Shown: in pieces, positions 2,325-61,807 of the stretch
How the letters are laid out: the number at the start of each line of letters is the position of its first letter
Numbering within the stretch: the first letter of the stretch is position 1
Origin: a virus
Direction: 5' to 3' (one strand)
Virus record (IMG/VR): IMGVR_UViG_3300010413_000015
Coordinates: 10,952-74,951 of that record
Length of the DNA stretch: 64,000 bases
Made by a program: the position numbers and the translations under genes
The notes under the pieces: model-generated
Database searches by the model: none
The model's input: the letters and a program-made list of their open reading frames with translations, nothing else
Told to the model about the DNA's origin: nothing

Positions 2325-3258
2325 CGTTTACCTCCCTGTCTCTTTTTTTTCTGAGCTGGACCTCACCGAGCCAGAAATCCCAGTCGGTGAAGTCTATGGG
2401 GAACCAGTATTTGTATCCCCTACGGATAACCGCAAATCCCCGAATCCACTTGGGGTGAGTGGTTGTCCCATTCACCATCATGTAGTATCTTCGGGTAGGG
2501 TCCGTGCCATGGCCAATCTCGCCGGCAACGTGCTTGCCGTCTTTCGTAAACGTCATGCTCATGTGGTGGGTATGCCCACTCAGGGTGTCCATGCCCTCGA
2601 TCTCCGCCCTCTCTTGAGGCAAAGACCCTCGGACCTTGCGGTACTGTGCCGGGTGTTCTACCAACGTTTCTTTTCCGTCGGAAACTACGTGGCACCATTT
2701 GTATTCTGAGACCACCAGCTTCCCGTGCCTCCCCCATAGAAGCTGAAGCAGCCTCAGAAACTCAAGCTCTTTCTTTCGCGTGGCTCTCTGTTCGTGGTTC
2801 CCCTTGATGTAGTAGATGGTGTCAAACCACTCAAACAGGGCCGTAATCACCGCCTCTCCACTGACCAGCTCGTCGATGAGTGATGGGTAGTCTTCCTCTC
2901 GGGGAAAGGGGCTGAAGGCATCGTTTGCCAGGAAGTCCCCCGCAATTAGCAGAGACTTGATGCCCAGCTTCATTCCCATGGCCACAGCATAGGAAACTAC
3001 CTCTTCGTCATGGTATGGCACTTCTAGGTCAGCGATGACTACGACATCTCCCTCGATGACCAGATGGTCTAGGTACTGCGGTTCCGTGCTCTTGACTCTC
3101 ATATTAGGCCAGTACTCCAGCTTCCCCTCCCTCCAGAGTTGGAGTCTCCACTCTTTCACGGTTGTGTGCGACATACCATACTTCTCTGACAACTGGGGGG
3201 TCTCAAGAGTTTCTGCATCCTTGAGAAAGTCGTGCACGAGCTCGCCTGGTATCGCCAT
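2317..3258 (-). CDS. Calcineurin-like metallophosphoesterase with N-terminal HTH
   Basis: Motifs D-x-E/H, GDFLAND, GNHE, GHTHH. Confidence 0.8.
   Translation of the reverse strand: MAIPGELVHDFLKDAETLETPQLSEKYGMSHTTVKEWRLQLWREGKLEYWPNMRVKSTEPQYLDHLVIEGDVVVIADLEVPYHDEEVVSYAVAMGMKLGIKSLLIAGDFLANDAFSPFPREEDYPSLIDELVSGEAVITALFEWFDTIYYIKGNHEQRATRKKELEFLRLLQLLWGRHGKLVVSEYKWCHVVSDGKETLVEHPAQYRKVRGSLPQERAEIEGMDTLSGHTHHMSMTFTKDGKHVAGEIGHGTDPTRRYYMMVNGTTTHPKWIRGFAVIRRGYKYWFPIDFTDWDFWLGEVQLRKKRDREVNDD
2672..2684. repeat. 13-bp quasi-palindrome, copy 1
   Basis: TTTCCGTCGGAAA inside the phosphoesterase gene. Confidence 0.95.
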
Positions 3259-3261
3259 TTT

Positions 3262-3582
3262 CTACGCCTCCACCTCGAGTTTTTCGCACAGGGCGAATAC
3301 TTCCTCACGGTTGGCTACTTGCCATCCAGGGTGTTTCTCGACAAGCCCCTTCAGATAGCTCATGTCCTCTTTCGTGAGTGTGACAGTCCACGTGTTTTCG
3401 TGGGGGTCCCAGGCGTAGGTGTTACCAGACTGAAGCAGGCCAATGGACTTCCCTTCTTCCTCAGTCATCTCCAGGGTGTCAAGGACTCGAGACGCCTTCC
3501 TTAACTCCCCGACATTGCCCTGTACCCCATTCAGAATCCCCACGAGAACCAGGCGCTGCCATGTTGAAAGTTCTACTTCCAT
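3262..3582 (-). CDS. Hypothetical protein, possible tail fibre chaperone
   Basis: GGGAGG RBS before ATG at 3582; follows the tail fibre gene. Confidence 0.5.
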   Translation of the reverse strand: MEVELSTWQRLVLVGILNGVQGNVGELRKASRVLDTLEMTEEEGKSIGLLQSGNTYAWDPHENTWTVTLTKEDMSYLKGLVEKHPGWQVANREEVFALCEKLEVEA

Positions 3583-3665
3583 GGTTAACCTCCCTCTGTT
3601 ATTTGGCCCGACCATGCCAGCATAGCACCTTGCCATAAGAACGTCAAGGCGCCTATAGGCCCATG

Positions 3666-6600
3666 CTACGTCACGAATATCGCCGGGCACGGTAAGCTGA
3701 TTGCACCAGGGCTTCCCGTTTTCGCTACTTGAACGTACAGCATAAACTCCGACGCGGCAGTTAGCGATGTGCTGAGTCCCGTGCTCGAGTACATGTTCCA
3801 GGCATCGGCACTCATTGCAGATGTGTCGAAGCTCAACCTATTAGTTCCAGACCCATTTTTGAGGTTGATGGTCCAGTAGTTGCTAGCGTTGTTTGTTGTA
3901 TCCACCCAAACGGCCTGGTGCCAAGACCGGATTGTCATATCACGCGAGATGGTCCCGGCGTAAGGACGTCCGCCATTCGTGGTCATTTGATACGCAACGA
4001 GCGCATAGTTCCCGAAAGGGAACCAACCACTCATTCCCACATTGGACTGAACCATTCCAGCATCAGGGTCAACGTCAGTTGCGCCAGCATAGATTCCACC
4101 ATTCAGGATGATGTCATTATCATACCCTGCCCCAAGTGAGCCCACACGGAGACCTGCCTGAACCAGGGCATAACCTTGAGCAGGGTCCGTTGTCCCACCC
4201 ACTGTGAGTCCCCCGGCAATCGTGACGTCATTATCTGGCGGGTCATTCGTGGTGTCGCCAACTCGCAATCCGGCTCCAGCATATAGGTCGGTTGCCGTAT
4301 GTATCTTTATGGTCGTTTGCTCGACCGCCAAGACGTCAGATGCGCCGACCCAGAGTGTGATTCGGTCTGTAGTGCCAGACTCAATCTGGAGATAATTAGA
4401 AGTGGCCCCACTAACAGCCCGCAAGAATACTCTGGCATCCCCGGTGGTCAACGTGCTCTCTAGGTACAGGTCTGCGATGCTAGAGCCATATGCTGTCCAG
4501 ATGCCACCATAGTAGGTAGCACCGTCGTACCACGTTACCTTGTTTGCCCTTGCGGTGCCTGTGGCAAAGGTGAGGCCCAACGCATTCAGTTCGATAGCAC
4601 CAGCGCCACACACTAGAGAACCGTCTGTGTCAATGTATAGTTGAACCGTACCAGTCCCTGCCCTAAACTTCAATTGGCCTGTAGACCCACCACCATCAGC
4701 ATCCCACCACATATTTGCATGACCAGATCCTGTTTGTCCAAAGATGGCATCACCAGTTAAGCCTTCCAGCTTTATGATATCCGTACCACCCTTGCGCAAG
4801 AGCAGGTCGCCAGGGTCTGCGTCCCAAAAGAGGTTGGCCTTGCTAGCGTTATACTCGCCAAACCTTACATCTCCATCAGCTTGAAGTACGAGAGTGGCTA
4901 CGCTGTTGTTGTACAAGCTGATAGTTGTCCCGCTGAGGTCGATGTATGCACTGGTCGTAGAGTAAATCTTTAGGCCGCTTCCATCCCACAGGAGTTTACC
5001 GGCTGAAGCATTTCCTAGAAATAGGCGGGGTGTCCCGGCGTTGTACTCTAGCCAGTAGCCCGTGCCGGAATCGTAGGCCGTCGCCCCACATTTGAGGACC
5101 GCGCCTGTGGACATCGTAAGTGTGTTGTCCACAGTCAGTGCACCCGTGCTTGCGCTTACTGCCGCCAGGTTCGTGACGTCGATTTTCTCGGCAGTTACAG
5201 CATCAGCGGTCAGTTGGTCCGTGTCTACGGTTCCAGTCTGGATATTGCCACCGTTGATGTTCGTCACGCCTGAGCCGTCTCCGGCGATGACCAGGCCGTT
5301 TGTCGGGTCATACTTGAGATAGTCGCCACCGGAGTAGTTTCCAATGGCCATGCCCCAGGTCTCCGTAGAGTAGGGACCCCATCCATTTAGGTCACCCAGG
5401 CGGACAAGTTCTGTCTGCTGGTTGTACGAGGTACCCTGGCGTATCATTGAGATTCGCGGTCCACCTGTCTGTGCGTCGAGCTCTACCCTGCCGTCCCCAT
5501 CATAGCCAAGATTCACCCATACATGTCCCTGTGGCCAGGCATTGGCCCCGCTACCATCCAGGTTCCTGGTCACGGTGTAGATCGTGCCAGAGACAAAGGC
5601 CGTGACTTGCATGTATTCCACCTGGTTGTTGCCACGAAGCAGAATGAAATCGTTCACGGTGAGTGAGCTACCAAAGTCGATGTCTGTCTCAGTGTCGTCT
5701 ACATCCTCGGCCAGGGTACCAGATGAGTGCGGAACGATGAACCAGCCACCCATAACAGATGCGGTATTTTCCACAAACAGGATAGCTTCCATCTCGGACA
5801 ACCAGCCTTTCCGCCACAGGAGGGTTGAACTCCCTAGGTCATAGGTATCCGTTAGTAGGGGAATTAGATGCGAGTCAACTTTTCCGACGGAAAAGTTGCC
5901 GGAGACAGTGAGGTGCTGCAGAGTGAGTAGCCCGGCCGCTGTCGTAGCCAGAATGCTAGCCGTCGCACCGGGGCTGTTGCTGGAGTCGATGGCATGCACA
6001 TGGGTGGCCCTAGAGAATGACGTGCCAGTGCCCTCAGTGTTAGAACTGCTCACTGAGAGGTTTGTGCTTGGCGCTGCGGTACCAATTCCGTGTGTGTGGT
6101 CCCGACGAGCGGCAACAGAGGCGCTGCCTGTAGCAGACGAAGACGTGCCGGCAGCTATCGTTGTCGGTAGCGTTGTGTCAAAGACTACGAGTGTAGCATC
6201 CGAGCGAATCATGGTCTGGGCAGAACCTTCAGCATAGGCGGTGCCCAGCGAGATTGTTGGCGCTGCAATCAGGCTATCAATCTGTGTCCAGGCCAGGTCT
6301 CCTGTATGGTCAGTGCCAGAGAGGGTGTGCTGCTGGTTATGGTGGTCATTGGCCGAGACATCAGCAATGCTGTCATGGCTGATGTTGGCCTGGTTGATAG
6401 TGAAGGTCAGTATGTTTGTGCCTGCCACAATGCTGAGAATGTTGTTGGCACTTGTAAGTTGTATCCTGTCATCTGCAGCCGGAGTAACTGCCGTTGCGCT
6501 TGTGTCTTCAAGGCCTACAAAGCCGGCATGATGCTGGTCAGCGCTCACACTCCCAAGGTCAGTGTGCGACAGTTGCTGAAATGCTGCGGTGGTGGCTCCG

Positions 6601-13088: not shown

Positions 13089-16000
13089 AATCCCCCCCTC
13101 ATTCTCTGCCTGGAGGCAGTCTTGTTCAGCTCTGCCTCAAACTTCCTCCATATCTCGGCCGCCAGTTGTCTCTCGTCCTGCCTCCCTCCTTCAACCGAGA
13201 TAGAGACGTTCATATTTCCGACGGAAAATCCGCTTGCGGTCAGCCTGCGGAGTGCCATGTTGGGGACAATGGTCCCATTCTGGTCTGGAACGAAAATCTC
13301 TGGTCCCACTTCACCCACCAGGTAACTACTCCCGGCTGTGACATCCCCCCCACCAGCCAGGCTGTTCCCGCTTCCACCTCCATCCCCTTGAGACTGGAAC
13401 ATACGGTTCAGGCGGTTCTCGATGCGGTCCAGAAGGTTCTGCCAGGCCTTGTCAAGGCTCGAATCCCTCTTGACGCTGCTCTCGAAGTGACCAATTAGGG
13501 TGTCCCACTTGCCCCAGAGGTCTCCGTCTTTCGAGAAATCGCTGAGCTGCTGCCTCAGGAAGGCAGCATAGGCATCTTGGGTCAGGTCCTGCAACCGCTG
13601 GTGCTCTATCTGGCCAGGGAAGACCACTTCCTCGAAGTACTTCTGTTCCTGGGTCATTTGGGCCAGGCGATACATCATATCGTCCTCAGCAATCTCTTGC
13701 TGTTTCGCGGCAATCGCCTGCTGCATCGCCGCCATAGCCTCTGCTTCTCCCATTTGCTCCTGGAGGTGCTTCATTTGCAGTGCAAACGACTCATCCATGT
13801 GCTTCTTGGAAAGGTCGAAGTTCTCCTGCATGTGTCGCTTCTGGAGCTCATAGTTCTGCGTCATGTGCTCCTTCTGCATCTCAAACTGCTCGGTCTCTAG
13901 ACGCTTGATATCTTCGTAGTGTGATTCCTGGTCTTTGAATGCCTGCGCCTGTTGGGCCCACAGCTTCTCCTGTCGCCCTTCCTCAACACCCCTACGCTTC
14001 TCAGAGACACCATAGTCCTCTTCCATACGTCCCCGCTGGCGGAGAAGCTCCTGCTTCTCGCGCCCGGAGGCGAAGCGAATGGCCCGGTTGATATCTTCCA
14101 TCCCACGGGTGTACTGCACCCCAGCCTGTTGCCGGTTGAACGCCATATCTTCACGGCCCCAGCGCTGGCCCTGCATCATCTGTTGCCATTGAACACCGAA
14201 CTGCCTTCTCTGGAACTCGGTGTTGACACCCCACATTCTCTGGCCTAGGGCAAAAGACGCTTGCTGTTGGGCATAGCCCTGCTCCAGGCTCTCCGTCCCT
14301 TGCTGGAAACCAAGGTTCAGCCGTTCCTGGCCCTGGCGATACTGAAGGCGAGCGCTCTCCATGGCTCGCTCAATACCGGCCCTCTGCTGTTGCGCTGCCA
14401 TTGCCGCAGCCGCAGCCTGCATTCCGTACAGCTCTCGGGACTGTTCTAGCTTCAGTTCCGCTCGCTGGATTTGGCCTATCATGCCCATCTGGTAGGTTCT
14501 GCCACCATAGCTAGAGGTTGCCCACTGGCCAGTGCCCATGCGGTATGCCTGGCTCTGGCGTAGTTGGTTCCAGGACAGCGCCCTTGAAGCAAGCTGGCCT
14601 ATGCCGTAGATACCACCACCAGGCCCTATCTCGTGTAAGGGCATAGCCCCCTCCACCAGGGGCATCCCCATAGCACTACGGAACCCACCTACGGCCCCCT
14701 GTGCCTCTGCGCCAAAGACCCCTTGGGCCGCACTGTATCCCAGGGCAGAGCTGGCAAAGTTGGCCATCTCCCCAAACTGGGCGTACTCGAAGGGAGTCAT
14801 CTGTCCAGAGGCTAGTGCTGCCTGCAGGCCCTGCTCAAACTGCCCGGCTACTGCCCCGGCCATGCCAAACCCTCTGGCCACAGCTCCTTGGCCCATTACA
14901 GACTGGGCCCATACCTGGCGAGCTGCAGGAGAAACGCCACGGGCTGCCATTGCCTGAACCCGGCCCTGCAGGGCTCGGGCATTTCCGCCGAGGTACTGGT
15001 AGATTTGACCCCCAAGGCCGGCCGCAGCCTCATATTGGGCCATTCCCTGAGCGCTTTGCCATGGAGCATTGGCCATGAACCCTATGGCTTCTGGACTTCC
15101 TGCCGCAAAGCCATACTCTTGTGCCGCACCAACGCCAATGGCTGCCTGTTCCCTCCGAAGCATCTGCTCTGGGGTTACACCCGGAGGGGTATAGATGACT
15201 CGCCCGTCAGGGAGCTCAACCATTTGGCCTTCAAGTTCCTGCTGTAGCCCCTGATAGTATCGGGCCGCAGCCTCTGGACCAAGGCCGCGCATGTCTGCGA
15301 ATGTGCGATACTGGCTGGCAATCTGTGCCGTGGCTCCACCAACTGCTGCGGTCTGAGGACCAAGTGTTTGCCCGATTCTCTGAGCTACTGCACTACCAGG
15401 TGTATACCCCATGGCAGAGACAATGGGCTGCATGCCATACCGGGCCTCTTGAAGAGCTGCAAGCTGGGTGGTTGTGACCCCACCAGCAAGCTGGCCCATG
15501 TACTGCTGTAGCATTTGTCCTGATACTCCAACTCCTATCTGTTGGAGTTGTCCTGCAACCCCTGAGGCCATGAGGAAGTTCTGTTGCCCGGCTGCTGTTG
15601 TTGGGATGTAGGGAGACAGGGCCCACATCCCTGCGCCCGTCCCGATCCCCAGATACTGGCTTACTTGCTTTAGGGTAGAGGCCATCCCGGGAAGCTGCCC
15701 ACTAATGGCTGCTGGCCCGAGCTGCTTGGCCAGCTCATCTACTCTTCCTTCGTACACGGCCTTTGGCCCGTATCCGAGCTCGGCCAGATAGCTGAAGGTT
15801 TCGTACTTCTTTGCTGGGTCTAGACCTGGAATATCCAGGTTTTCGATGTGGAGGCTGGCCCGGTCAATCTCTATCTGGCCAGACTTCACATACTGCGCAA
15901 CACCCTCGCGCAGTTGGCCTGCGTAGTCCTTGTCCAGAATCGAGCGCAAGCCCATGCCAACCCCTGTCCCAAGAGAGAGGTCGCCCTTGGTAGGCGAGCC

Positions 16001-19000
16001 CCCACCAGCCATGCCCTTGAGCCAGCTAAAGGCACCTCTCTGCGTCTCAGGCTCTGTGGCCAGACCGAGAAGCTCCCGGTAGACATTTCCGGGGGCAGCC
16101 TGTTCATAGGCCTGCCCAAGGAGAAGCCCCCCGGTCACAACGCCACCTGCCAGGGCGGCGATTGGGCCCATTCTAGAGCCTATTCCCATCATACCTCGCC
16201 CTAGAAGGCTTTCTCCCCCTAGCGTCTTTCCGAATCTGCCGAGCACTGACGCGGCAATGCCGGCTTTCGCACCAAACTCGAGTCCCTTGAGAATAGGTCC
16301 ACCAACTGCACCCAGTCTTTCACCGGCCCCATATGCGCCAGAGGGACCACCTAGCGTTGCCAGTATCTCACTGATACCAGCTTGCCCTCGAAGTGTGCCC
16401 ATACCGAAGCCCTGGGCGAAGGCCTGCTGGCCAGCCTGGGCCTGCATAATCCTGCCCATGGGACTATCCATAATGGACTGTGCAGTACCCCCCATCTGTG
16501 TAGCAAACCCTATCTGGGCACCAGCAAGCCCCCGTGCCTGTTCCATAGCACGGTTCACTGGTCCCCCAAAGATTCGCTCGGCCGCTGTCCAGCGGAAGTA
16601 TGCACCGCCAAAGGAGAACTCCTGCAGGAGCTGGTCGAGGCCCTGGCCAAGTGTGCCACGCATGCCCTGTGGTCTCTTGGGAGCCGGCCTGCCCCTTTGT
16701 CCACCGGTAGCCTCATAAAGGTCGTACTGGAACTGCAGGGCGTCTCGTGTTTCCACAGCGCCGATAGTCTCTGTGAGGGCTGGCTCGTTCTCGATCTTCT
16801 CCAGTTTCCTGCCAAGACGTTGCATGTTTTGGGTTACTGTCGCAACCACATCTTGGGGGACACCTGCTGCAGTCAGACCCTGTGGACCAACTTTTGCCCA
16901 TTGCTCCCTAATGTCCTGGGCCTGGCGGAAGGTCTTGGTGAAGGACTGTGCATCTTTCAGCATCTCCTTCTCGGCCCGAGTCAGGTCTCTCTGTACGGCA
17001 ATGGTCTCCCTAAGCTCTGGGGTCCACTGCTTCAGATGGTCTGCCACCTCATCCAGGGTCTTCCTCATCGACCCTGACATCCACAATCCCAACTCCCAGG
17101 GCTTCCCGCTTCCGGCTGTCTGCCGGGGGTTCAGGTCACGTTGCTGTTGCCCCTGAGAGGGCGGTACAATTGGTGCGCCGGGGTCTACACCCGGAGGCAC
17201 CCAGTTAGGGTCAAAGTTGGGGCCGGGCATCCCCGCCAGGGGGTCTGCCGGGTCAACTGGTGGCCTGTTGGGAGGCGGGGGAGCACCGGGAGGCGCAGCC
17301 ACTGTAGGCCTGGCGGCTGCCGGCCGTCGGCCTGCCTGTTGGAGATGTCTCCTAAGCTGGCCAGGTCGCGTAACTGGGGACTGAGCCATTGCAGGTGCTG
17401 CAGTCGCAACCGGAGGCGTAGGCTGTGTGGCTGCTGGTTGAGTCACCTCAGTTGGTGGTGTAAGATTGGGTTCCGGCCCCATCTCTGGTGGCGCCACAGG
17501 GACCCTAGGTGCTCGCTCTGGGTGTGGGCTCTCTGCAACTGGAGGTTCTGCACCAGGTGTGGCTAGCCAATCTGCCATCCCAGACGCTTCCAGGGCCACT
17601 GCTTGTTCCTCAATACTGACCCCTTGTCCGGCCCCCTTCTTCAAAGCAGTAAGCCTGTCTTGCATCTCTGACTTAAACCTGAGAAGAGTGTCGGCCAAGT
17701 CCCGGCCCACGCTCCTGGCCCCAAACTCTCCGTACAGGTTGGCACCGTGCTTCTCTGCATACCGACTAACGGCTCCTGCCCACTGCCCACCGATTGCCTG
17801 TCCAGAGGCGGCCTCCCTTACCCAGTCCTCATGTGTCTGACCAGCCTTCATCATTCGGGGAAGAATCTTGTATCGCTGCTCGGGTGCGGAGAATCGCTTG
17901 AACATCATCGCAAACTGCTGGGCCTGCTTCTGGTTAGGCCCGGAGAACATTGCACCCGCTTCTTCGGGAGACACAACTCCCTGCTGTACAAGCTCGGCAA
18001 AAGCGCCGACACTCTCCTTGCGAAGTCCTGCAAGGTTTCGCAAGGTTCCGGTGCCTACTTTCTCCCATTCCCCGGTGCTGCGCATAAATGCCTTGCCCCA
18101 GGTAGTGGTATTCATGAGCGCATGAACACTCATGACGTCCTGGGGGGGGATGGCGGGTCTCTGAGTATACCCATAGCTGCGGTTCCAGATAGACTGTACG
18201 GCAGACCTGGCTGTTTGGCCTACCTTCCCAGGAATCTGGAGTGCCCTACTCATAAGCCTTCGCATGTCCTGGAATCCAGGACCTATTGCATTGTAGAGCT
18301 CCCGGTTTTCCTGAACAAGTTCCTCGACCTTGCCCTCATCCATGGTATGGTAGTCAAGGGCCTTTCTCCTGACAATCTCCATGGCCGCTTGTAGGTCTTG
18401 GTCTCCGGGAACCATCTCAGCAGGGAGGCTTCCAGCGCCCTCAGACTGCACACGCTTGCGCCCAATCTCACGTACTCGTTCTGGAGAAAGCTCTACACCA
18501 GCGGCGTCGTAGAACTTGCTACCTTGCACCTGAGCCCCACCAGTCATCAGGGCATAGGCAATGTCTGCGTCAAAGTCGCCGCCAGCCATACCCTGTAGGT
18601 ACTCTGACACTACCATCCGGTTGGGGTCATAACCTAGGCCCTCGATAAGCTCTCGGGACACAGTAATGCCCTGAGCTGCACGGTCAAAGCTGGACTCTCC
18701 CTGAGTGGGGAAGCGAATCATGAAACCTGCTTGCCCGGCCTCACGGTCTGGCAGGTACATCTCATTGATGCCCAGTGCCTTAGAGCCAAGCACCTTGTAC
18801 CCCTCCAGGTACCTCCTGCCAGGTGTTACTCCCTGGGCCCGTCGGAGGCCCTGCTCGGACTCAGAAATCTTGCGTTGCTCCTCCATGACGGTCCTGCGAT
18901 ACTCGACAAACGGCGCCTTCTCCTGATTCAGAAGGGACCGGACCATGCCAAACTGCCCTCTAAGGTAGCGAGAGACCTCTGTTTGTTCGAGGGCACCTTC

Positions 19001-26920: not shown

Positions 26921-27877
26921 CTAGCCCATTGTCGCTGGCATCTTAAAGTTGTCCATGCGTCGTGTGAGCTCTCGGATCTGGTCGTACATGTCGTTCACAC
27001 TCGGCGTGGGCTGGAGCTGGCCTCCATGCTGTCGCTGGACATCTGGGTCGTTCAGGAGCCGGAAATACGTAGCCTCGATTTCCGTTTGCTCGTTCAGGGG
27101 AAGCTCGTCAAAGGCCTTAGACCCCATAGCCTCCATTGCTTTCAGGAACTCCTGATACACACCTTGCGCACCTCCTGGTGCACCGGGTGGCAAAGCACTC
27201 CCTGGACCTGTACCTTCCAGCAGGCGCGTTTGCGCCTCATCCTGGGCCTGCCCCTTCAGCGTGGCAAGCTTCTCGATGACTGCCTCTATCTCTGCCCGTT
27301 GGGCCTGGTCGTTCACGGTATTGTCGGGGTTGATGGATGGCTTGATGACCTTGATACGGTCAGCAAATAGGTTAAGGGGCAACCCGTGTCCCTTGGCCCC
27401 GGGCTTTGTGTACTCCTCAAGAAGCATGTCTCGATACTGCTCTGCTCGCTTCTGTTCAAGTGCCACTGTCAAAGGGTCTAGCGATTGTCCTTGTGCATTT
27501 CCGTCGGAAACTGGGGCCGGGGCCGGGGCCTGCGGAGTTTTTCCTCCCCCCTCCGGGGCCGGGGCCTGCGGTGCGGCAAGCTTGCTAAGAATCTCGCCTA
27601 CTTGCTGTTTGAGCGTAGCGAACTCGCCATCCAGCACCTGTCGGGCCTGCGTCATTTCGTTGACCTTCCGGTCAAGACCCTGGCGCCGAGCCTCAGATTG
27701 CTCGTACAGGGCCTTGTAGTCCGGCTGTCCGGGCCCACTGCCTATGGCTTCGCCAAGGGTGGGCAACGTCCTAGTGTCCGGACCATGCGGTTGGGCCGAG
27801 GTCGCCTGCGGGGCCTGTTGTGGCACCCCGGAGCTATCCCCGGAACCTGCTGGCTGCGGAACTGTGTCTGGCATCAT
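26921..27877 (-). CDS. Capsid scaffolding protein
   Basis: Pro/Gln-rich with coiled coils (DYKALYEQSEARRQGL), upstream of the capsid gene. Confidence 0.65.
   Translation of the reverse strand: MMPDTVPQPAGSGDSSGVPQQAPQATSAQPHGPDTRTLPTLGEAIGSGPGQPDYKALYEQSEARRQGLDRKVNEMTQARQVLDGEFATLKQQVGEILSKLAAPQAPAPEGGGKTPQAPAPAPVSDGNAQGQSLDPLTVALEQKRAEQYRDMLLEEYTKPGAKGHGLPLNLFADRIKVIKPSINPDNTVNDQAQRAEIEAVIEKLATLKGQAQDEAQTRLLEGTGPGSALPPGAPGGAQGVYQEFLKAMEAMGSKAFDELPLNEQTEIEATYFRLLNDPDVQRQHGGQLQPTPSVNDMYDQIRELTRRMDNFKMPATMG
27498..27510. repeat. 13-bp quasi-palindrome, copy 5
   Basis: TTTCCGTCGGAAA in the scaffold gene. Confidence 0.95.
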
Positions 27878-35309: not shown

Positions 35310-35576
35310 CTAGCGATTATCACGGACTTCACGTGGGCCCCTTTCCTCTCTAGCGGCTTCTTGCACTGGCAGAATCCCGTCGTAGAAGAGCACTTTCACC
35401 GTACTCATCCCTAAATCTGAGTGCCCCAGCTCAATAAGCCGCATTTTGACCAACAGCCACCAGTGTTGGTCCCAGTATTCCATGACTTCCGGTCCCAGGT
35501 GTTTCCCTGACCACCGATAGATGGCCAGCCAGAATTTCCGACGGAAACGGACCCAGGTTTCACGCATCCTTTCCAT
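35310..35576 (-). CDS. Hypothetical protein
   Basis: 88 aa, GGGAG RBS. Confidence 0.5.
   Translation of the reverse strand: MERMRETWVRFRRKFWLAIYRWSGKHLGPEVMEYWDQHWWLLVKMRLIELGHSDLGMSTVKVLFYDGILPVQEAAREERGPREVRDNR
35535..35547. repeat. 13-bp quasi-palindrome, copy 6
   Basis: TTTCCGACGGAAA. Confidence 0.95.
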
Positions 35577-42151: not shown

Positions 42152-42408
42152 TACTTCTTCCTTTTCCCTGCTGTGCGAGGGGCCCAGCGTGTGTCCAGCC
42201 CCTCCTTCCAGGTCTCTTCGTCCATCCAGTGAGGTTGAAACAGCGGCTCACTCTCTGACCAGGTGCAGGAAAGGCAGGCACCTGCCCAGGTGCCGGACTC
42301 ACTCCCGCAGTTAGGGCAGGTGACAAACCCCTGGTCGTTGGTGAAGAACTTAGGCTTGGCTCTCTTTTTTTCCGACGGAAACCCTAGAGTCATACAGAAA
42401 CGCTCCAC
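42151..42408 (-). CDS. Small zinc-ribbon protein
   Basis: CPNCG...CLSC. Confidence 0.55.
   Translation of the reverse strand: MERFCMTLGFPSEKKRAKPKFFTNDQGFVTCPNCGSESGTWAGACLSCTWSESEPLFQPHWMDEETWKEGLDTRWAPRTAGKRKK
42369..42381. repeat. 13-bp quasi-palindrome, copy 7
   Basis: TTTCCGACGGAAA. Confidence 0.95.
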
Positions 42409-47082: not shown

Positions 47083-47095
47083 TTTCCGACGGAAA
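47083..47095. repeat. 13-bp quasi-palindrome, copy 8
   Basis: TTTCCGACGGAAA, intergenic just past the terS stop. Confidence 0.95.
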
Positions 47096-48285: not shown

Positions 48286-48298
48286 TTTCCGACGGAAA
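48286..48298. repeat. 13-bp quasi-palindrome, copy 9
   Basis: TTTCCGACGGAAA, intergenic. Confidence 0.95.
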
Positions 48299-48329: not shown

Positions 48330-48521
48330 ATGAAGCTGGGACGGAAAGTGATTACCACGCAGGTTGACGCGCCCGGCAAGACGTTGGAGGACATTGGGGT
48401 CCAGAAGCAGGCCATAAGGAAATGCGGGAGCCGGTGCAGCTCCTGCAACAGGGTCTGCAACTTCCGGGACCCCAGCCAGCCCCTGCCCAAGGGGGGCACA
48501 GGGTTCGGCTTCCGGCTCTAG
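48330..48521 (+). CDS. Small Cys-rich protein
   Basis: AAGGAGG RBS; CxxxCxxCxxxC. Confidence 0.55.
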   Translation: MKLGRKVITTQVDAPGKTLEDIGVQKQAIRKCGSRCSSCNRVCNFRDPSQPLPKGGTGFGFRL

Positions 48522-50767: not shown

Positions 50768-52966
50768 ATGAAGCTCGCCGTTCTCGCAATTCTCACCCTG
50801 GTGTGGGAGGGGACCGTGCCGTACCTCCACACACTCTACGAGGCTCTCGTGGGAGAGCCTCTGGCAGTAGTCCAGGTCAGCACCAAGCCCAAGCACCGCC
50901 AGTGGATGACACGCCTGCTGGTAGGGCTTCAGGACAAGGGGTGGCACCTGGACTTTGCCACAAGTGCCAGAAAGAGCGGACAGGCCATCATTTCCCAGAC
51001 TGGGAAAGTGTCCTCGCTCTTCTGGCGCACGGCTGAGGAGGCCATTGCCTATGGCAGTATCCTTCTCACGCCGTGCTGGGGTGCGTACCCCCAGTCCATG
51101 ACCCTGAAGGTTCGGGTGGTGGAGGATGGGGAGTACGACACCGGGGATTGCCACGGCAAGGCGAGCCGGGCAGTCTATGCCGCCCTTGGTGGTGTTGTGC
51201 AACAGGCCGCACAGTTCCGCCTAGGGGTCCTGGCCGGTGGCTTGCTGGCCAAGGGCACATTCTGCATCCCAGATGTGTCCCTCGCCTGGCCAGACGGGGT
51301 AGACCTGATTCTGCCCCGGAGCTGCTTCAAGAGCAGCAACAAGCCTGGCCCTGGCACGTATACCTGGGACCTGGTCCTGGGTGTCGTGAACTGGAGCAAG
51401 CCCACCCCGACCAAGATGGGCTGGCAGATGCTCCAGTGGTTCAGTTGGGCAGCGGTAGAGGCCGACATCCTTCCCAGGGTCAAGGAGGGAGCAGCCCAAC
51501 TGGTTGCCGCCCTGGCAGATGTCAGGGCACTTGCCGAGCTTCTCCGGCTATACTCTGTGCCCAGCATCGACACAGAGGACGGGGAAGATGACCAGGCCGA
51601 GGTCTTGCTCATCGACGTTCTCCGAGCAGACCACAGTGGCTACCTGTCCCGGCACCCACACGTAGTTCGGCGGGTGAGCGACATGCTGCGCCGACGGTGG
51701 CAGCACCTCGCAACCGGTGGTGGGCAGTTCCTGACCGGCCTTATGGGGCTACCGGATGACACCCTGCCATTCGGGGTGGTGGCCACCAGCGACATCCCTG
51801 TCGGAGATGTCCTTGTGACCCGGTATCCCATCAGGTTCTGGGGTGACGTTCGGAAATGGGTCAACGTCGCGCCCGTCCAGAGCCTCAAGGGCACCATCTG
51901 GATGTCCCATGAGACCGCTGCCGTGCTGGGTGGCGATTTCGACGGGGACTACTTCCAGGTGGTTCCGTCAGCCACCTATCCCGCCCTGTCCCAGGACATG
52001 GAGAACTGGGCCGACCGCCCCACTGTGAATGTGGTCAAGGTCAAGGATAGGAGGGCCACCCCCCTGAGTGCCCAGGGGCTGGCCGAGGTCTTTATGAGCA
52101 ATGTGGACAACATGGTGGGTAATGTGGCCCTGCTCATTGCCCGTGCTGGCGCTGCCGGCAACCATAACGCAGTTGTCCAACTTGCCCAGGAGTTGCAGGT
52201 CGCCGTTGACAAGTTCAAGTTCAACGTAGACAACGACACCGACTTCATTGATGCCTGCAACACGTCCATTCCAGACCTCACATGGGCATGGGACCGTGAA
52301 CACCGCGATGCCTACCATGCCCGGCCGATGAAAGTGCACGAGCGGGATATGGACACCATATCCTGCCTCATCCGGGAGGTCAATGCCCTGTGGGTTCCTT
52401 ACCAGGGTATGGCCCTTCCCCTATGGCACTTCACCGGCCTGTTCTCCAAGCCCGACCAGCACATGGATGCAGCTCGTGGGCTGGCAGTGAGGTATGCTGC
52501 CAATGTGCGCACGGCTCTCCGTGCCGGGGACAAGAAGGCCATCTCTAAGCTCTTCAAATCCCTGGAGGCGTGGTCGCGGCAGGTGGAGAATCCGACCGAG
52601 TGGGCTGCTGCCATCTGGCATGCGGTTCACGCGGAGAATGCCAAGGGCACCGGCTCGCTGGCCTTTGCTGCGTTTCCGACGGAAATTGCAGAGAGGGTGG
52701 CCAGCCTGCCGTCCACCCCCGAGGCACCGCGCAATGCCACCATTGTTGGCCTGGAGAAGAACGAGTGGGCCAACAACGCGAACGACCTGGTAGGTGAGCA
52801 GCAGGTGATGTTCGATATCACCACGTTGCATGGCCAGGTCCGGTTCTCCGCCGTGGTAGACGGGCGGGTGGTCGGCATTGTCTCCAAAGAGACCCCTGTC
52901 CCCCAGGGGACATTCACCATGGGTCTCACGGTAAAGGGCGCTTGCGTGTACGCGAGTGCCTCCTAG
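50768..52966 (+). CDS. Single-subunit two-barrel RNA polymerase (YonO / cellular-RdRP-like), non-virion
   Basis: TGDCHGK, QFRLG...LAKGT, VTRYP, LGGDFDGDYF (51935-51949), LQVAVDKFK. Confidence 0.85.
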   Translation: MKLAVLAILTLVWEGTVPYLHTLYEALVGEPLAVVQVSTKPKHRQWMTRLLVGLQDKGWHLDFATSARKSGQAIISQTGKVSSLFWRTAEEAIAYGSILLTPCWGAYPQSMTLKVRVVEDGEYDTGDCHGKASRAVYAALGGVVQQAAQFRLGVLAGGLLAKGTFCIPDVSLAWPDGVDLILPRSCFKSSNKPGPGTYTWDLVLGVVNWSKPTPTKMGWQMLQWFSWAAVEADILPRVKEGAAQLVAALADVRALAELLRLYSVPSIDTEDGEDDQAEVLLIDVLRADHSGYLSRHPHVVRRVSDMLRRRWQHLATGGGQFLTGLMGLPDDTLPFGVVATSDIPVGDVLVTRYPIRFWGDVRKWVNVAPVQSLKGTIWMSHETAAVLGGDFDGDYFQVVPSATYPALSQDMENWADRPTVNVVKVKDRRATPLSAQGLAEVFMSNVDNMVGNVALLIARAGAAGNHNAVVQLAQELQVAVDKFKFNVDNDTDFIDACNTSIPDLTWAWDREHRDAYHARPMKVHERDMDTISCLIREVNALWVPYQGMALPLWHFTGLFSKPDQHMDAARGLAVRYAANVRTALRAGDKKAISKLFKSLEAWSRQVENPTEWAAAIWHAVHAENAKGTGSLAFAAFPTEIAERVASLPSTPEAPRNATIVGLEKNEWANNANDLVGEQQVMFDITTLHGQVRFSAVVDGRVVGIVSKETPVPQGTFTMGLTVKGACVYASAS
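52673..52685. repeat. 13-bp quasi-palindrome, copy 10
   Basis: TTTCCGACGGAAA in the RNAP gene. Confidence 0.95.
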
Positions 52967-53260: not shown

Positions 53261-53605
53261 ATGAAGAACCAGTGGAAAATCGAGCAGCTTGCGACAGCCC
53301 TATACCTCAAGGTCAGAACAGGAAAGTATTCGCCTTGGGAGGTGTCAGACCTTGCTCTGCGCATTTCTGACCTGGCGATAGACGAGTACAGGAGCGCTGT
53401 CGCGCAAGACTGTGAGATTGCCCAACCGGGCGTTGACAACGTTCTTAATCGTGGTACAATATCCACGTGCGGAACAGAAGACCAAACCAAATCTATACAA
53501 CCAAAGGAGAAGGAAAATGTTCCACAAAGTGAGTTTGATTGGACATCTGGGCCAGGAGCCGCAGCTGCGCTACACGCCGGACGGGATTCCCGTCTGCAAC
53601 ATTAG
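53261..53605 (+). CDS. Hypothetical protein
   Basis: AAAGGGG RBS; 3' end overlaps the ssb promoter and start. Confidence 0.4.
   Translation: MKNQWKIEQLATALYLKVRTGKYSPWEVSDLALRISDLAIDEYRSAVAQDCEIAQPGVDNVLNRGTISTCGTEDQTKSIQPKEKENVPQSEFDWTSGPGAAAALHAGRDSRLQH
53433..53460 (+). promoter_or_regulatory. sigma70-type promoter for ssb
   Basis: TTGACA-16 bp-TACAAT with GTGG. Confidence 0.6.
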
Positions 53606-53987
53606 TGTGGCGACCAAGGAGAGCATCAGCAAGAGGCTGCCGACTGGCGACGAGCGCTCTTGCCCTCAGGGCTGGACCACGAGCCAGAACGGCAAGAACT
53701 GGGAGTTGACCACCTGGTTCCGCGTGGCGCTATGGCGCGGCCTGGCCGAGACGGCCAACCAGTACCTCCACAAGGGTTCCCAAGTCTTCATCGAGGGGAC
53801 CATGTCTGGGGAGGCCAGCGGTGGCAGCCAGGAGCCGAGGGTCTGGACGGCGAACGACGGAGCGCACCGCGCCAGCTACGAGATTACCGCTCGCACCATG
53901 AAGATGCTGGGCGGGAATCGCAATGGCGATGCAGGCAGCACGGCGCCGGTCGAGTATGAAGAGGAAGACCCTCCCTTGCCCTTCTAG
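53517..53987 (+). CDS. ssb: Single-stranded DNA-binding protein
   Basis: KVSLIGHLGQEPQLRYTPDG, TTWFRVALW..LAE...YLHKGSQVFIEG, acidic tail ending LPF. Confidence 0.95.
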   Translation: MFHKVSLIGHLGQEPQLRYTPDGIPVCNISVATKESISKRLPTGDERSCPQGWTTSQNGKNWELTTWFRVALWRGLAETANQYLHKGSQVFIEGTMSGEASGGSQEPRVWTANDGAHRASYEITARTMKMLGGNRNGDAGSTAPVEYEEEDPPLPF

Positions 53988-54020
53988 CAGTACGGGCAAG
54001 TAGTTCTACAGATGAATAGA

Positions 54021-54057
54021 GTGGGGCAGGTTAGGCCGGGACCTGCCCCACTTTTTT
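54021..54057 (+). terminator. Intrinsic terminator
   Basis: GTGGGGCAGGT-N9-ACCTGCCCCAC-TTTTTT. Confidence 0.85.
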
Positions 54058-54208: not shown

Positions 54209-54631
54209 TTAATCCTCTCGCTCATTCTCTGTCTCTATGATCCCCCTAAGGTATTTTGCGTGTGCCAGGAGCGCTTCAGAGAACTCCCGCCGCCTTTTCA
54301 TAGGGAGCTCTGCAATGATGTGAAAGAGTTCGGTGGCCTGTGCACGTTCTGTAGCAGTGAGCCCCTCCAACTCGTCACTATCAATGTATGCCAGCTCAAA
54401 GAGTACTAGGGAGGAGACCTCAAAGAAATCGGCAATCCTGGCCAGCACATCGGGACGGGGTACAGTGCCTTCTACTTTGACAATCTCCCAAAGCATCGTT
54501 TGGGAGACCCCCGTTAACTCTGCGGCCCGGTTGGTTGAAAGGCCCCTAACCTTAGTCAGGGGGTCCTCCCAATCAGCCATCCGCATGGCCAACCACTTCG
54601 CCAGCGGATTGTCTGCAATGGGCCTCTCCAT
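54209..54631 (-). CDS. XRE-family HTH regulator (cI-like)
   Basis: RGLSTNRAAELTGVSQTMLWEIV...PRPDVLARIADFFEVS; start ATG 54631 after GGAGGG. Confidence 0.8.
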   Translation of the reverse strand: MERPIADNPLAKWLAMRMADWEDPLTKVRGLSTNRAAELTGVSQTMLWEIVKVEGTVPRPDVLARIADFFEVSSLVLFELAYIDSDELEGLTATERAQATELFHIIAELPMKRRREFSEALLAHAKYLRGIIETENERED

Positions 54632-57321: not shown

Positions 57322-57681
57322 ATGAAGAGGCTGTACTTGACAGACGGAGCGAAGGTGTTCATGTGGACAGAGAAGCACAGGCTGCTCTTGGTGGCGAGTG
57401 CCCTGACGGTGACAGTGGCTGACCGGATAACAGCTTGTCTCAATGCCTGTGAAAACTTTCCGACGGAAAATCTGGAGGGCCTGGAAACCGGTGGGCTTCA
57501 CGAGCTGCTGCTGGCGGCACTGGAATGTGTGGAGGCAGACGAGGAGGCCAGGGCCGAGTCGTGGCCAGAGGAGGTTGCTGCCGGAGAGATGGTCCTTGAC
57601 CTAGCCGAGAGTATCCGCGATGCGTTAGGCATTGCCCAACCCGAGGAGTTTGAGCTATGCGAGCAAGAGACATTACGGTAG
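57322..57681 (+). CDS. Hypothetical protein
   Basis: DRITACLNACENFPTENL resembles a recurring phage motif (RIVACVNACEG). Confidence 0.55.
   Translation: MKRLYLTDGAKVFMWTEKHRLLLVASALTVTVADRITACLNACENFPTENLEGLETGGLHELLLAALECVEADEEARAESWPEEVAAGEMVLDLAESIRDALGIAQPEEFELCEQETLR
57457..57469. repeat. 13-bp quasi-palindrome, copy 11
   Basis: TTTCCGACGGAAA. Confidence 0.95.
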
Positions 57682-59007: not shown

Positions 59008-60026
59008 TGTCTGCCGTTTCGGAAGAACATCTGAAGAAGATTCTAGAAGACCATCTATTGTGGATTCGGAGGGAACAAGCCGGCAAGCAGGCCGACCTGC
59101 ACGGTGCTGACCTGGGGGGGGCCCACTTGCAGGGGGCCGACCTGAGAGGGGCCATCCTGCGCGAGGCCAACCTGCGGAGCGCAGACCTGCTCGCTGCCGA
59201 CCTGCGCGGGGTCATCATGTCGGGGGCCGACCTGGGCAAAGCCAACCTGTGCGGTGCCAACTTGCGTGGGGTCGAGCTGCTCCACGCTAACCTAAGCAGG
59301 GCCGACCTGCTTAGGGTAGACCTGCGTGGGGCCAGACTGCGTGAGGCCGACCTGCGCAGTGCCGACCTGAGCGGGGCTGACCTAGGCAAGGCCGACCTGA
59401 GCGGAGCCAAGCTGTGCTCAGCCCACCTGAGTAGCACCAACCTGGTTGGCGCCAATCTGGATAGAGCGTGCCTATGTAAAGCATACCTGTCCAACGCAGA
59501 CTTGCATGGCGCGAGTTTGCGAGAGGTGAACTTCTTCAGGGCCACCCTGGTTAGAGCCAACTTGAAGGGGGCATATCTGCAGGGTGCGAACCTGAGCGGG
59601 ACGAATCTTATGGGAGCCCAGTTAGAGGAGGAGGCCGGATTATGTTGGTACGCCACCTCCATGGACGGAAAACTACTCGAGCTGCAAAGAACGTTCTGCA
59701 GGCAATGCCCACCCAACCGGTATGGTGGGCGCATTGTTTTCAGGACACTCACAAGCTCGAACATAGTTCCTCGCACCAGGTACATGCCAGGGTACACTTA
59801 CACGGCTCCCAACTTGAGCTTTGATTCTGCAACATCCTGTCATCCCGGCATCTACGCAGCCAGCCTTGAGTGGATGCTTTACCGGTATCCGGGTGTCCCA
59901 TTGGTTGTCTGCTACGTCAGGGACGGTGAGTGGGTTATCACGCGCAAGGGCGCAATTCGGTGCAAGAAGTTGCGTGTTCTGAAACTCTACTCTGGGGAGG
60001 GAATGGATGGCGGGATGGTGGGTTGA
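59004..60026 (+). CDS. Pentapeptide-repeat protein
   Basis: Long A(D/N)Lxx repeat tract plus C-terminal CHPGIY domain. Confidence 0.9.
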   Translation: MMSAVSEEHLKKILEDHLLWIRREQAGKQADLHGADLGGAHLQGADLRGAILREANLRSADLLAADLRGVIMSGADLGKANLCGANLRGVELLHANLSRADLLRVDLRGARLREADLRSADLSGADLGKADLSGAKLCSAHLSSTNLVGANLDRACLCKAYLSNADLHGASLREVNFFRATLVRANLKGAYLQGANLSGTNLMGAQLEEEAGLCWYATSMDGKLLELQRTFCRQCPPNRYGGRIVFRTLTSSNIVPRTRYMPGYTYTAPNLSFDSATSCHPGIYAASLEWMLYRYPGVPLVVCYVRDGEWVITRKGAIRCKKLRVLKLYSGEGMDGGMVG

Positions 60027-60193: not shown

Positions 60194-60430
60194 ATGCGTA
60201 GAATTGCGGGTTTCCTTGCGGGTTTGTTTGACCCAGACTGGCGGGACCATGAGCGCAGGGATAGGTCCCTGCGCCTAACCCGCCACTTGAATCGGATGCG
60301 GAGGGCGTGGAATCTTCCAGTAAGCATTCCCCCCTCCCTTATCCCCCTTGTCTCACCGGCCATGCAGGCCAGGTGGGAACGAAAGATAAGGAGGTTTCTT
60401 GAGCGTGGAAGTAGAGATACGGTTTTCTAA
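60194..60430 (+). CDS. Small basic protein
   Basis: Arg-rich, 78 aa. Confidence 0.4.
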   Translation: MRRIAGFLAGLFDPDWRDHERRDRSLRLTRHLNRMRRAWNLPVSIPPSLIPLVSPAMQARWERKIRRFLERGSRDTVF

Positions 60431-61190
60431 GGCAAAAATCACAAAGGCCATTCCTAAGAGGGATAACAGCCGGCCGACACTGCACTATGTGCACCTGAAC
60501 CCCAAGACGCGCACATTGGAAGCGGTTGACGGGATGATGCTGATTAGCCTACCGGTGGTTTCCGAAACAGAGGCGCTCCCCGATTGCTTGATACCCTGGG
60601 AGGCAGTGGAAGAGGCCCAGATACTGTCAAGCGTTATGCTACCTATCCTGTTTCTTGACACAGAGGCCAAGACCATCCGCACTTTGGAGGGCACGGTCTA
60701 CCATTGGGGAGAGGGAAAGTATCCAGATACAAGCCGGGTTATCCCCAAGCGGGAGAACCTGAGCCATCTTGCATCCCTAGACGTGAACCGGCTCAGGGAC
60801 TGCGCTCTGGGTATCACTACACATCGCAGCAAGTGCATTAGCCTCTACCAGGACCCTACATCTGGAGGCAGGACGCCCTTTGTCATTGACGCCGAGTTCT
60901 TAGGAAGCACCGATGGAAAGACTGCCTTTGCGATTCTTATGCCCACGCGCCCTCTTTCGCAGGAACGCACCAGCTTGCAATCGCTGCTTGCAGACGACTT
61001 TACGGTGACTTTCAGGTCGCAGCCTGAATACCTCGGTGGCAGCAACAAGGTCATTCGCACCGACATCATTTGTACCCTGTCCCTTTGCGACCTGGAGGTC
61101 CTGGCGATAGGGGAAACCCCCATGGCAGCCCTAGAGAACGCAGTGAAGATGTTGGATGTGGTGAGGGCAGAGGACGAGACGCATGAATAG
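60399..61190 (+). CDS. Beta sliding-clamp-like protein (partial)
   Basis: RPTLHYVHL..LEAVDGMML and GKYPDTSRVIP echo DnaN motifs (ATDGHRL, GxYPDYxRVIP). Confidence 0.6.
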   Translation: MSVEVEIRFSKAKITKAIPKRDNSRPTLHYVHLNPKTRTLEAVDGMMLISLPVVSETEALPDCLIPWEAVEEAQILSSVMLPILFLDTEAKTIRTLEGTVYHWGEGKYPDTSRVIPKRENLSHLASLDVNRLRDCALGITTHRSKCISLYQDPTSGGRTPFVIDAEFLGSTDGKTAFAILMPTRPLSQERTSLQSLLADDFTVTFRSQPEYLGGSNKVIRTDIICTLSLCDLEVLAIGETPMAALENAVKMLDVVRAEDETHE

Positions 61191-61479
61191 GCAGCACATC
61201 ATTCGGTGGCTAGGCGGGGGCTTGAAGCACATGGGCTTTTGCTTGGTCCCAGACCCCAATAACGAACCTGATTACATCCTGGAGGGGGAGGAGGCGTCTG
61301 TGTGGATTACCACCGGCCCCCTCCAGGTGTATGTGTACATGCACGAGCACGGAGTGACCGTTGAGCTGTCTCCAGTTGGATACGCGGATGACCCACTAGC
61401 AAGTACCTCCCTCCACTATGATGAGGCGGAGGAATGGAAGGGGGAAAGGGAAAAGAAATATGAAACTGACAAGGAATGA
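61183..61479 (+). CDS. Hypothetical protein
   Basis: Coupled ORF. Confidence 0.5.
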   Translation: MNRQHIIRWLGGGLKHMGFCLVPDPNNEPDYILEGEEASVWITTGPLQVYVYMHEHGVTVELSPVGYADDPLASTSLHYDEAEEWKGEREKKYETDKE

Positions 61480-61807
61480 GGCGGCATCGTGGAACCGGCG
61501 ACAAGGAGAACACGACATATGGAATCTGTCCTCTGGGGTCGCAACACTGTTTCGGATCACGGTGCGGAAGTGGAAGTTCCGCAAGCTTAGTGGGAAGGGA
61601 TACCAGTACACTGCCAGGGACCGCGCAGTGGGCCTTGCTGCCCATTGGCCCTACTTTCTGACATCTGTCTCCATGGGCCCTAACATGGCAGTGCACCATC
61701 TGCAAAAGGCAGGTGTGGCGCCCGAGGACCTGGATGCCTTCAGAGCCTCCCTTGAGGATGCGGGTTGGCATATACGGGAAGCAGTTTCCGACGGAAATGC
61801 AAGTTGA
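61460..61807 (+). CDS. Hypothetical protein
   Basis: Coupled ORF. Confidence 0.5.
   Translation: MKLTRNEAASWNRRQGEHDIWNLSSGVATLFRITVRKWKFRKLSGKGYQYTARDRAVGLAAHWPYFLTSVSMGPNMAVHHLQKAGVAPEDLDAFRASLEDAGWHIREAVSDGNAS
61785..61797. repeat. 13-bp quasi-palindrome, copy 12
   Basis: TTTCCGACGGAAA. Confidence 0.95.

Follow-up and report, generated by a model that had tools for sequence, protein, structure and literature searches.

How two-barrel single-subunit phage RNA polymerases (RNAPs) such as YonO, crAss gp66 and the P23-45 enzymes gp64 and gp96 recognize their promoters is hardly understood. Start sites have been mapped for the two-barrel polymerases of phage P23-45, and each enzyme uses a short conserved motif there (bioRxiv 10.1101/2022.12.01.518664). 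For YonO the promoter is undefined (PMC5467207), for crAss gp66 none was found, and both gp66 and QDE-1 favour single-stranded templates. Hairpin promoters are known from phage N4, where they require a single-stranded DNA-binding protein (SSB); their hairpin, with a stem of 5–7 bp, is extruded by supercoiling and stabilized by SSB (PMC4496689). Our search of the literature turned up no account of a hairpin-type or palindromic promoter for a two-barrel phage polymerase. Here we describe a 13-bp palindrome, TTTCCGWCGGAAA, that is dispersed over the genome of an uncultured tailed phage represented by a contig of 75 kb. The stretch under study, hereafter the window, has a length of 64,000 nucleotides and comprises bases 10952–74951 of the 74,951-bp IMG/VR virus contig IMGVR_UViG_3300010413_000015, for which CheckV gives a completeness of 86%.

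We judge it an even chance that this 13-mer is a cis signal read by a two-barrel RNAP of the phage, in which case it would most likely be a minimal promoter-type site. As far as the sequence allows us to say, the likeliest readers are the phage's own two-barrel RNAPs, a context that was overlooked in the initial annotation of the stretch. Several other roles can be proposed for the word, and they are discussed below together with the observations that speak for and against them.

Occurrence and placement of the 13-bp word

Across the full contig we found 14 exact copies of the 13-mer, 12 in the window and two outside it (contig 2335 and 9497). The 12 window copies had been listed in the initial annotation, and every one of them could be confirmed at its position. 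The annotation had also put the chance expectation at about 0.002 copies. Base composition gives an expected number of 0.0015, and not one of 100 dinucleotide-preserving shuffles contained a copy, so chance can be rejected. All 14 copies are identical in the stem, and the central base is W (A or T). One-mismatch variants do not exist, and a search with two mismatches added only a single unrelated match; the word therefore has no halo of degenerate copies. Likewise, each TTTCC-N3-GGAAA in the genome is a copy with GWC in the middle, and no other loops or spacers were found. On the plus strand the centre is A at ten sites and T at four, three of the T sites being adjacent, and this polarity is not significant. 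As a single strand, the 13-mer folds as (((((...))))), with a 5-bp TTTCC stem and a 3-nt GWC loop, at −1.7 kcal/mol.

No word other than the 13-mer is over-represented in the genome. Upstream of genes only Shine-Dalgarno-like words are enriched, and apart from host-type sigma-70 promoters we found no other repeated or promoter-like words in the genome. The second-most frequent word, CAGGTCGGCC, is a coding repeat of the pentapeptide-repeat type and was rejected as a signal for that reason. The flanks of the copies do not align, and a mobile element or miniature inverted-repeat transposable element was rejected because conserved flanks are absent. The earlier statement that the flanks are not conserved thus stands as far as alignment is concerned. 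It does not hold for a purine box, [AG]GAG[AG]G, that lies on the plus strand within 16 nt after the word at five of the 14 sites (background 1.5–2.6%; noticed post hoc) and whose direction matches the local gene direction at four of the five boxed sites. A restriction or methylation target was also rejected, since the 13-bp word is enriched and not avoided.

An assembly or adapter artefact, which had been named as a possible explanation from the start, can be dismissed as well. The phage is also present, at about 99% identity, in contigs obtained from other studies' public runs (marine sediment, soil and other metagenomes), with sites 47083, 57457 and 61785 intact; mangrove sites, too, have yielded it, and none of the runs listed for the phage is an RNA run. 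Since these independent assemblies carry the sites, an artefact is excluded. The metagenome contigs, compared over 20 kb, represent strains about 99% identical with few single-nucleotide polymorphisms and show the presence of the sites only. The 13-mer is absent from 27 Mb of sequence, made up of five bacterial genomes or metagenome-assembled genomes (MAGs) in which relatives of the phage polymerase occur, and the exact 13-mer is also absent from the records of five relatives. Because the word is missing from these 27 Mb of candidate genomes, a host factor, one of the readers proposed initially, is unlikely.

Genes were called with a codon-usage heuristic of our own. By these calls, five copies out of 14 fall entirely between genes, compared with 8.9% of positions expected (P 0.006). 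Seven copies lie deep in genes, and two fall within the first 5–18 codons of small open reading frames (ORFs). Nine window copies had been described as coding; we arrive at only six to eight of the 12. Firmly genic are six sites in the window. The copy at 2672..2684 (centre T on the plus strand) is found at codon 192 of gene 2317-3258 (−), where it reads V-S-D-G-K, and the copy at 5881..5893 (centre A) at codon 907 of the 1648-aa tail-region gene 3666-8612 (−), where it reads F-S-V-G-K. The tape measure gene carries the copy at 13215..13227 (centre A) at codon 2641 of 2689, 136 nt ahead of the stop, and the 318-aa structural-region gene 26921-27877 (−) carries the copy at 27498..27510 (centre T) at codon 123. 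The copy at 52673..52685 (centre A) lies in the polymerase gene itself, at codon 636 (F-P-T-E), with a GAGAGG box 5 nt downstream, and the copy at 57457..57469 (centre A) is at codon 46 of gene 57322-57681 (+), with a GGAGGG box 4 nt downstream.

Two further window copies occupy early codons. One (42369..42381, centre A) covers codons 5–9 of the small conserved ORF 42151-42393 (−), lies upstream of a 625-aa gene and is followed by an AGAGAG box on the minus strand. The other (61785..61797, centre A) is at codon 18 of ORF 61734-62279 (+), unless the ORF starts later, in which case the copy precedes the start. Intergenic in the window are the remaining four, all with a central A. The copy at 22003..22015 begins the series, 5 nt past the stop of the tail tube gene 22021-23052 (−), and the copy at 35535..35547 lies 52 nt upstream of the small gene 35310-35483 (−). 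The copy at 47083..47095 is located between the convergent genes 46265-46747 (+) and 47116-47643 (−), 20 nt beyond the stop of the latter, which codes for a TerS-like protein, and has a GGAGAG box on the plus strand. The fourth, at 48286..48298, separates the plus-strand genes 48015-48260 and 48330-48521 and has a GAGAGG box 2 nt downstream. Several copies sit 1–20 nt past stop codons, and at contig 9497 the order is stop codon, word, Shine-Dalgarno sequence, start codon.

In confident coding sequences the word is read in two frames, as F/V-S-V/D-G-K/N and as F-P-T/S-E. The initial annotation had counted all three frames, but the third reading, FRRK, occurs solely in a doubtful ORF. Its main point is nevertheless borne out: the word occurs in two frames, in intergenic DNA and with both orientations of the centre, which argues for a constraint on the DNA word and not on the protein. 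Relative to gene sense, the centre base is T in eight copies and A in six, again without polarity. The genome-wide distribution described earlier holds too. The 14 copies are spread over the full contig, on average about every 5 kb, with gaps of 1.2–8.8 kb and a coefficient of variation (CV) of 0.39. Random placement was as even as this in 0.04–0.06% of trials (P 0.0004–0.0006), and the spacing is independent of gene borders and gene direction.

Phage polymerases and the words of their relatives

Two candidate readers are encoded in the window. The first is a 732-aa single-subunit two-barrel RNAP with the motif GGDFDGD (50768..52966, +). Its sequence matches the Pfam family RdRP (PF05183, E 9.5e-10). 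Foldseek searches with its AlphaFold2 (AF2) model (pLDDT 87) retrieved plant RDR2 and fungal QDE-1 (E 2.5e-17), the P23-45-type non-virion polymerases gp64/gp62 (E 8e-11), crAss phi14:2 gp66 and P23-45 gp96. As modelled, the enzyme is structurally nearer to the eukaryotic RNA interference polymerases RDR2 and QDE-1 than to any solved phage enzyme. A tblastn search of 50,697 cultured phage genomes gave no relative of it, phmmer found no match among PDB sequences, and a single-protein search of viral contigs was negative; the same cultured phages also gave no match when they were searched by megablast and tblastn with the window, the polymerase and the portal. Homologs of the polymerase are found in sediment metagenomes and in prophage-like loci of filamentous cyanobacteria (Laspinema, Phormidium, Microcoleus). 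The phage SSB gene (53517..53987, +) adjoins the polymerase gene, and the two are grouped with an RNase H-like gene (50225-50638). The polymerase-SSB linkage recurs in five relatives (L029, L051, L041, L059 and G001).

The second candidate, a putative virion polymerase, is the RNAP-like N-terminal part (about 1150 aa) of the 2689-aa tape measure, with the motif GGDFDAD (17699..21148, −). It contains a ComEA-type helix-hairpin-helix (HhH) insert at aa 603–653. The RNAP-like domain is common to a metagenomic family of proteins of 2000–3200 aa, in which D-x-D-x-D is invariant (22 giant homologs). For the domain model (pLDDT 78.5), the top 50 Foldseek matches are all RNAP beta/Rpb2 chains, with E about 1e-4 and low TM-scores. 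A sequence search with the tape measure N-terminus matched only HhH proteins, and in an hhalign comparison with the polymerase family only the DFD motif aligned, which was not significant.

We fetched relative loci through alignment of metagenomic polymerase homologs; the closest homologs, P0004 and P0005 on contigs of 56.7 kb and 72.7 kb, lay outside this comparison. Each sufficiently long relative has a dispersed mini-hairpin word of its own, with a 5-bp stem and a loop of 3–4 nt. In L029 (44% identity) we found eight exact copies of TTTCC-GGGC-GGAAA and two copies of the 13-bp TTTCCGSCGGAAA. This locus keeps the TTTCC...GGAAA stem of the studied phage, with a centre of 1 or 2 nt. A variant in L029, TTTCC-GGGT-GGAAA, is conserved in L037, so that the loop has changed and the stem is kept. 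The G-rich centre in L029 lies on the minus strand at six left sites and on the plus strand at four right sites, and mostly tracks gene direction. Several L029 copies are arranged as stop codon, word, Shine-Dalgarno sequence and start codon. Two sites of the studied phage are syntenic with L029: copy 47083 has its counterpart at L029 7541, at the 3' end of the homologue of gene 47116-47643, and copy 35535, which precedes the small gene next to the portal, corresponds to a 13-bp copy at L029 1127. The L029 14-mer gave single chance hits only in viral contigs, among the matches listed.

In more distant relatives the word differs in sequence. L051 (41% identity) carries five copies of GCGCC-GACA-GGCGC, all of them intergenic, in one orientation and no more than 5 kb from the polymerase gene; the remainder of the 9.1-Mb MAG contains no copy. 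The genomes G002–G004 (28–29% identity, 38% GC) each have 20–31 copies of (A)AGGC-GTTA-GCCT(T). These are intergenic in 53 of 78 cases (13% expected) and nearly all in one orientation. Many are located 31–44 nt upstream of start codons; it is the following start codon, and not the preceding stop, from which the word keeps a constant distance. Flanking the invariant GGC/GCC are two base pairs that show covariation, with AU, UA, CG and GC all represented. The covariation score of 0.231 compares with 0.101 in shuffles, was reached by none of 500 shuffles and exceeds all slid controls. The tape measure polymerase domain has no counterpart in G002–G004, so their word must be read by the free polymerase family (or by the host). 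Their word spacing is Poisson-like, with a CV of about 1, which makes the even spacing particular to the studied phage.

Certain other repeats in the relatives did not qualify. Those of L030, L033/L034, L035/L036 and L046 were rejected as dispersed signals, as they proved to be local iterons, long inverted repeats or tandem coding repeats. For example, L030 has six AACCTTAAAA iterons within 360 bp at 830-1187, an origin-like arrangement. L047 contains three copies of a 7-1-7 palindrome, AATCTGA-C-TCAGATT, within 3.9 kb (778, 2206 and 2233), similar in form to the studied word. A portal search yielded two relatives of 10 kb, neither with a repeated word.

If the 13-mer is a promoter-type site, a phage polymerase would bind it and transcription would start there. 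Either the 732-aa enzyme or the tape-measure-fused domain could be the reader. Recognition might involve the duplex palindrome, or else a small hairpin or cruciform with a TTTCC stem and a GWC loop; the latter would resemble the SSB-aided use of hairpin promoters by the N4 virion polymerase. The copies within long genes could then be internal start or re-start sites that cover the 43-kb late operon and the early arms. The promoter reading draws support from the phage itself, which encodes the polymerases, has an SSB gene adjoining one of them and carries a word that is phage-specific and intergenic-enriched. It draws further support from the relatives, whose words are oriented, lie upstream of genes and are base-paired by covariation. 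The lack of any competing over-represented word, the purine boxes, the two sites shared in position with L029, the recurring polymerase-SSB linkage and the precedents of P23-45 and N4 speak for it as well.

A number of observations weigh against it. Seven to nine of the 14 copies are within genes, including long essential ones. The word has a symmetric form, and the base at its centre shows no polarity with respect to gene sense. One conserved site is flanked by convergent genes, a terminator-like position, and in several cases a Shine-Dalgarno sequence directly follows the word, leaving almost no room for a start site. With −1.7 kcal/mol, the single-stranded hairpin has little stability. The 13-mer is missing from the main divergent control regions, where promoters of the sigma-70 type are found instead. 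Even spacing is not predicted by a plain promoter role, and the promoter-like words of G002–G004 lack it. Some small relative loci show no hairpin word. Finally, the relatives were found via the polymerase, so the co-occurrence of word and polymerase is partly a matter of construction.

If the promoter reading is true, this polymerase lineage, with its member-specific hairpin-type words, would provide a set of natural promoter-polymerase pairs. The word of one lineage covaries as a stem, and that of another became a perfect palindrome laid out like a ruler. Such pairs would be open to in vitro tests, and they might find use as compact orthogonal parts for transcription.

Alternative roles and control elements

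The even spacing through genes is unexplained by ordinary promoter logic, and it brings up a different use of the same polymerases. The sites may be read by a polymerase mainly for DNA entry, through re-engagement and reeling by a tape-measure-anchored enzyme, or for the synthesis of replication primers. We regard this as quite unlikely. It would account for a spacing that is even (P about 0.0005) and independent of gene borders and direction, and the tape measure indeed bears an RNAP-like domain together with a ComEA-type DNA-binding HhH module. Transcription-driven genome entry is established for N4 (PMC4496689). With respect to priming, no primase or DNA polymerase was recognized among the about 88 ORFs covered by our batch Pfam/PHROG scans; the contig is incomplete, however, and replication genes may sit in the missing 14%. 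Reeling also needs one direction, whereas the word is symmetric with a mixed centre base, and in the relatives the words have the positions of ordinary promoters and lack even spacing. In its most specific form, which we consider very doubtful, the palindromes would be evenly spaced, orientation-free engagement sites at which a tape-measure-fused virion polymerase at the entry channel re-starts about every 5 kb and so reels the genome in. Should the spacing reflect polymerase-driven genome entry or priming, this would be a new viral use of the virus's own polymerase.

The position of several copies 1–20 nt after stop codons, and of one conserved copy between convergent genes, could also indicate that the word acts in RNA, as a short transcript hairpin that terminates transcription, causes pausing or marks processing. 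We give this hardly any credence. The 5-bp stem yields only about −2 kcal/mol and no T-run follows, while strong canonical intrinsic terminators occur elsewhere in the genome (for example at 54018-54054, with a 15-bp stem). Seven copies are deep in long essential genes, where termination would be harmful, and in the relatives the word keeps its distance to the next start codon and not to the previous stop.

Intrinsic terminators of this strength, together with near-consensus sigma-70 promoters, imply that the host polymerase is used too. Promoters of this kind with a TG extension are found at 53433-53460 (+), upstream of the SSB gene, and at 45268-45296 (−), heading the 43-kb minus-strand operon. 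A perfect sigma-70 consensus (12/12) at 54706-54678 (−) precedes the gene for an XRE-type helix-turn-helix (HTH) protein (54209..54631, −), which had been suggested as a reader of the word. No copy of the word lies within 1.5 kb of the gene, which does not support that suggestion. Besides the XRE-type HTH protein, the batch scans found the SSB, RNase H-like and RusA proteins, glycosyl- and methyltransferases and pentapeptide proteins. They revealed no ParB, integrase or partition gene or ATPase on this 86% complete contig. A six-frame search for ParB_N at E 0.1 was likewise negative on it; the control search was positive in 11 of 14 genomes. The ParB/Noc-type interpretation offered initially is therefore left without a reader.

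A more general form of the same idea deserves consideration, although we hold it to be unlikely. The palindrome may be an operator, roadblock or organizer site for a dimeric sequence-specific DNA-binding protein, either the XRE-type HTH protein or an unrecognized one. On this account, which we rate no higher, the duplex TTTCCG-W-CGGAAA would be bound at intervals of about 5 kb to silence, block or compact the genome, in the manner of stoperators or KorB OB. The word is a perfect 6-1-6 palindrome of the usual operator size, its centre lacks polarity, copies occur in genes, the even spacing would fit genome-wide roadblocks and the hairpin form is thermodynamically weak. Moreover, the XRE gene is conserved (39% identity) in L029, which retains the same half-sites and has a word copy 110 nt upstream of that gene. 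Published look-alikes exist in KorB OB, TTTAGCGGCTAAA (PMC11790492), and in the 17-bp palindromes of Cluster O phages (PMC4351075). Against a dimeric protein speak the lack of an encoded ParB_N and the distance of more than 1.5 kb between the XRE gene and any copy in the studied phage. In L029, centres of 1 and 2 nt are mixed and a loop variant breaks the half-site while it keeps the stem, which is awkward for a rigid dimer; the centre there is also asymmetric (always GG/CC) and polar along the genome. Neither integrase nor partition genes were seen that would point to a silenced prophage, with the contig at 86% completeness.

Some further features of the phage were noted. A type-P5 twister ribozyme (Rfam, 57.3 bits against a gathering threshold of 37.6, E 2.8e-9) is located at 46235-46300 (+), at the 5' edge of the early-region gene 46265-46747. 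An Rfam tRNA at 63776-63906 (+) spans 131 nt, with room for an insert or intron. Glycosyl- and methyltransferase genes lie among the portal and structural genes at 35588-39447 (−) and 23049-24239 (−). They encode an RGP-like glycosyltransferase (GT), a GT2 fused to a SAM methyltransferase and a GT1, and the block suggests virion or DNA glycosylation. Two pentapeptide-repeat proteins are encoded, one at 59004-60026 (+) and the other at 5723-6424 (+) of L060, the stretch of contig that precedes the window (contig 1-10951). Pentapeptide repeats with their 15-nt period draw many unrelated metagenome contigs in mapping, with a depth spike at 58.7–60.0 kb. The same left arm contains a tRNA-Trp (CCA) identified by ARAGORN (L060 8350-8424, +) and, according to Pfam, a DUF5131 protein (E 1.6e-53) and a Vut_1/YhhQ-like transporter (E 4e-8) of the queuosine-precursor transporter family.

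Comparison with known systems

The Thermus phage P23-45 is similar in several respects. It is a siphophage that has a polymerase-like N-terminus on a giant tape measure (gp96) as well as a separate compact two-barrel polymerase (gp64). Short, strongly conserved phage-specific DNA words are found in both phages, and P23-45 also makes use of the host polymerase, as the sigma-70 promoters indicate here. The P23-45 motifs, however, are non-palindromic, AT-rich or GC-rich and located at mapped early-region starts, whereas the studied phage has one perfect palindrome that is genome-wide, evenly spaced and half in genes. The polymerases of the two phages share no detectable sequence similarity, only the fold. 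Measured by the P23-45-type pattern of a motif that is intergenic, co-oriented and at a fixed distance, the relatives come closer (five of five copies in L051, 53 of 78 in G002–G004) than the studied phage, with five to seven of its 14 copies and no polarity.

The early promoters P1–P3 of N4, which are used by the virion RNAP gp50 with host SSB and gyrase, resemble the word in being inverted repeats with a 5-bp stem and a 3-nt loop. The SSB gene is linked to the polymerase in the studied phage. Its relatives keep the stem by compensatory changes, and in N4 the non-conserved stem bases need only pair. The N4 enzyme is T7-like, whereas both candidate polymerases here are two-barrel. In addition, N4 has three oriented sites at the genome end that enters first, with the start about 11 nt past the loop centre, in contrast to 14 dispersed sites without polarity (CV 0.39) and with a much weaker hairpin.

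In the case of KorB, about a dozen near-exact copies of its operator OB are spread over a replicon of some 60 kb, the IncP plasmid RK2, and some of them are far from promoters. Like the studied word, OB (TTTAGCSGCTAAA) is perfectly palindromic over 13 bp, with ends rich in T/A and S or W in the middle (PMC11790492). Its reader is a ParB-family CTPase clamp, whereas the studied phage encodes no ParB_N and was not seen to have a partition ATPase. The stoperators of Cluster A mycobacteriophages (L5, Bxb1) are dispersed 13-bp sites bound by one phage protein that act on transcription genome-wide. They are asymmetric, oriented with transcription and mostly intergenic, unlike the symmetric and unoriented word described here. 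The HTH gene of the studied phage has no copy at its own promoter, whereas its homologue in L029 has one 110 nt upstream.

The 17-bp palindrome TGTTCGG-NNN-CCGAACA of Cluster O mycobacteriophages (Corndog) has invariant inverted arms and a free centre that does not track transcription, as is the case here, and its function is unknown (PMC4351075). Copies occur throughout a siphophage genome of about 70 kb, partly intergenic and partly in ORFs, and in both phages a glycosyltransferase/methyltransferase block lies near the terminase and portal genes. The two words differ in sequence, arm length and density (34 copies compared with 14), and neither a phage polymerase nor even spacing has been reported for Cluster O. 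The studied phage has no detectable homology to any cultured phage, so it is not related to Cluster O by sequence.

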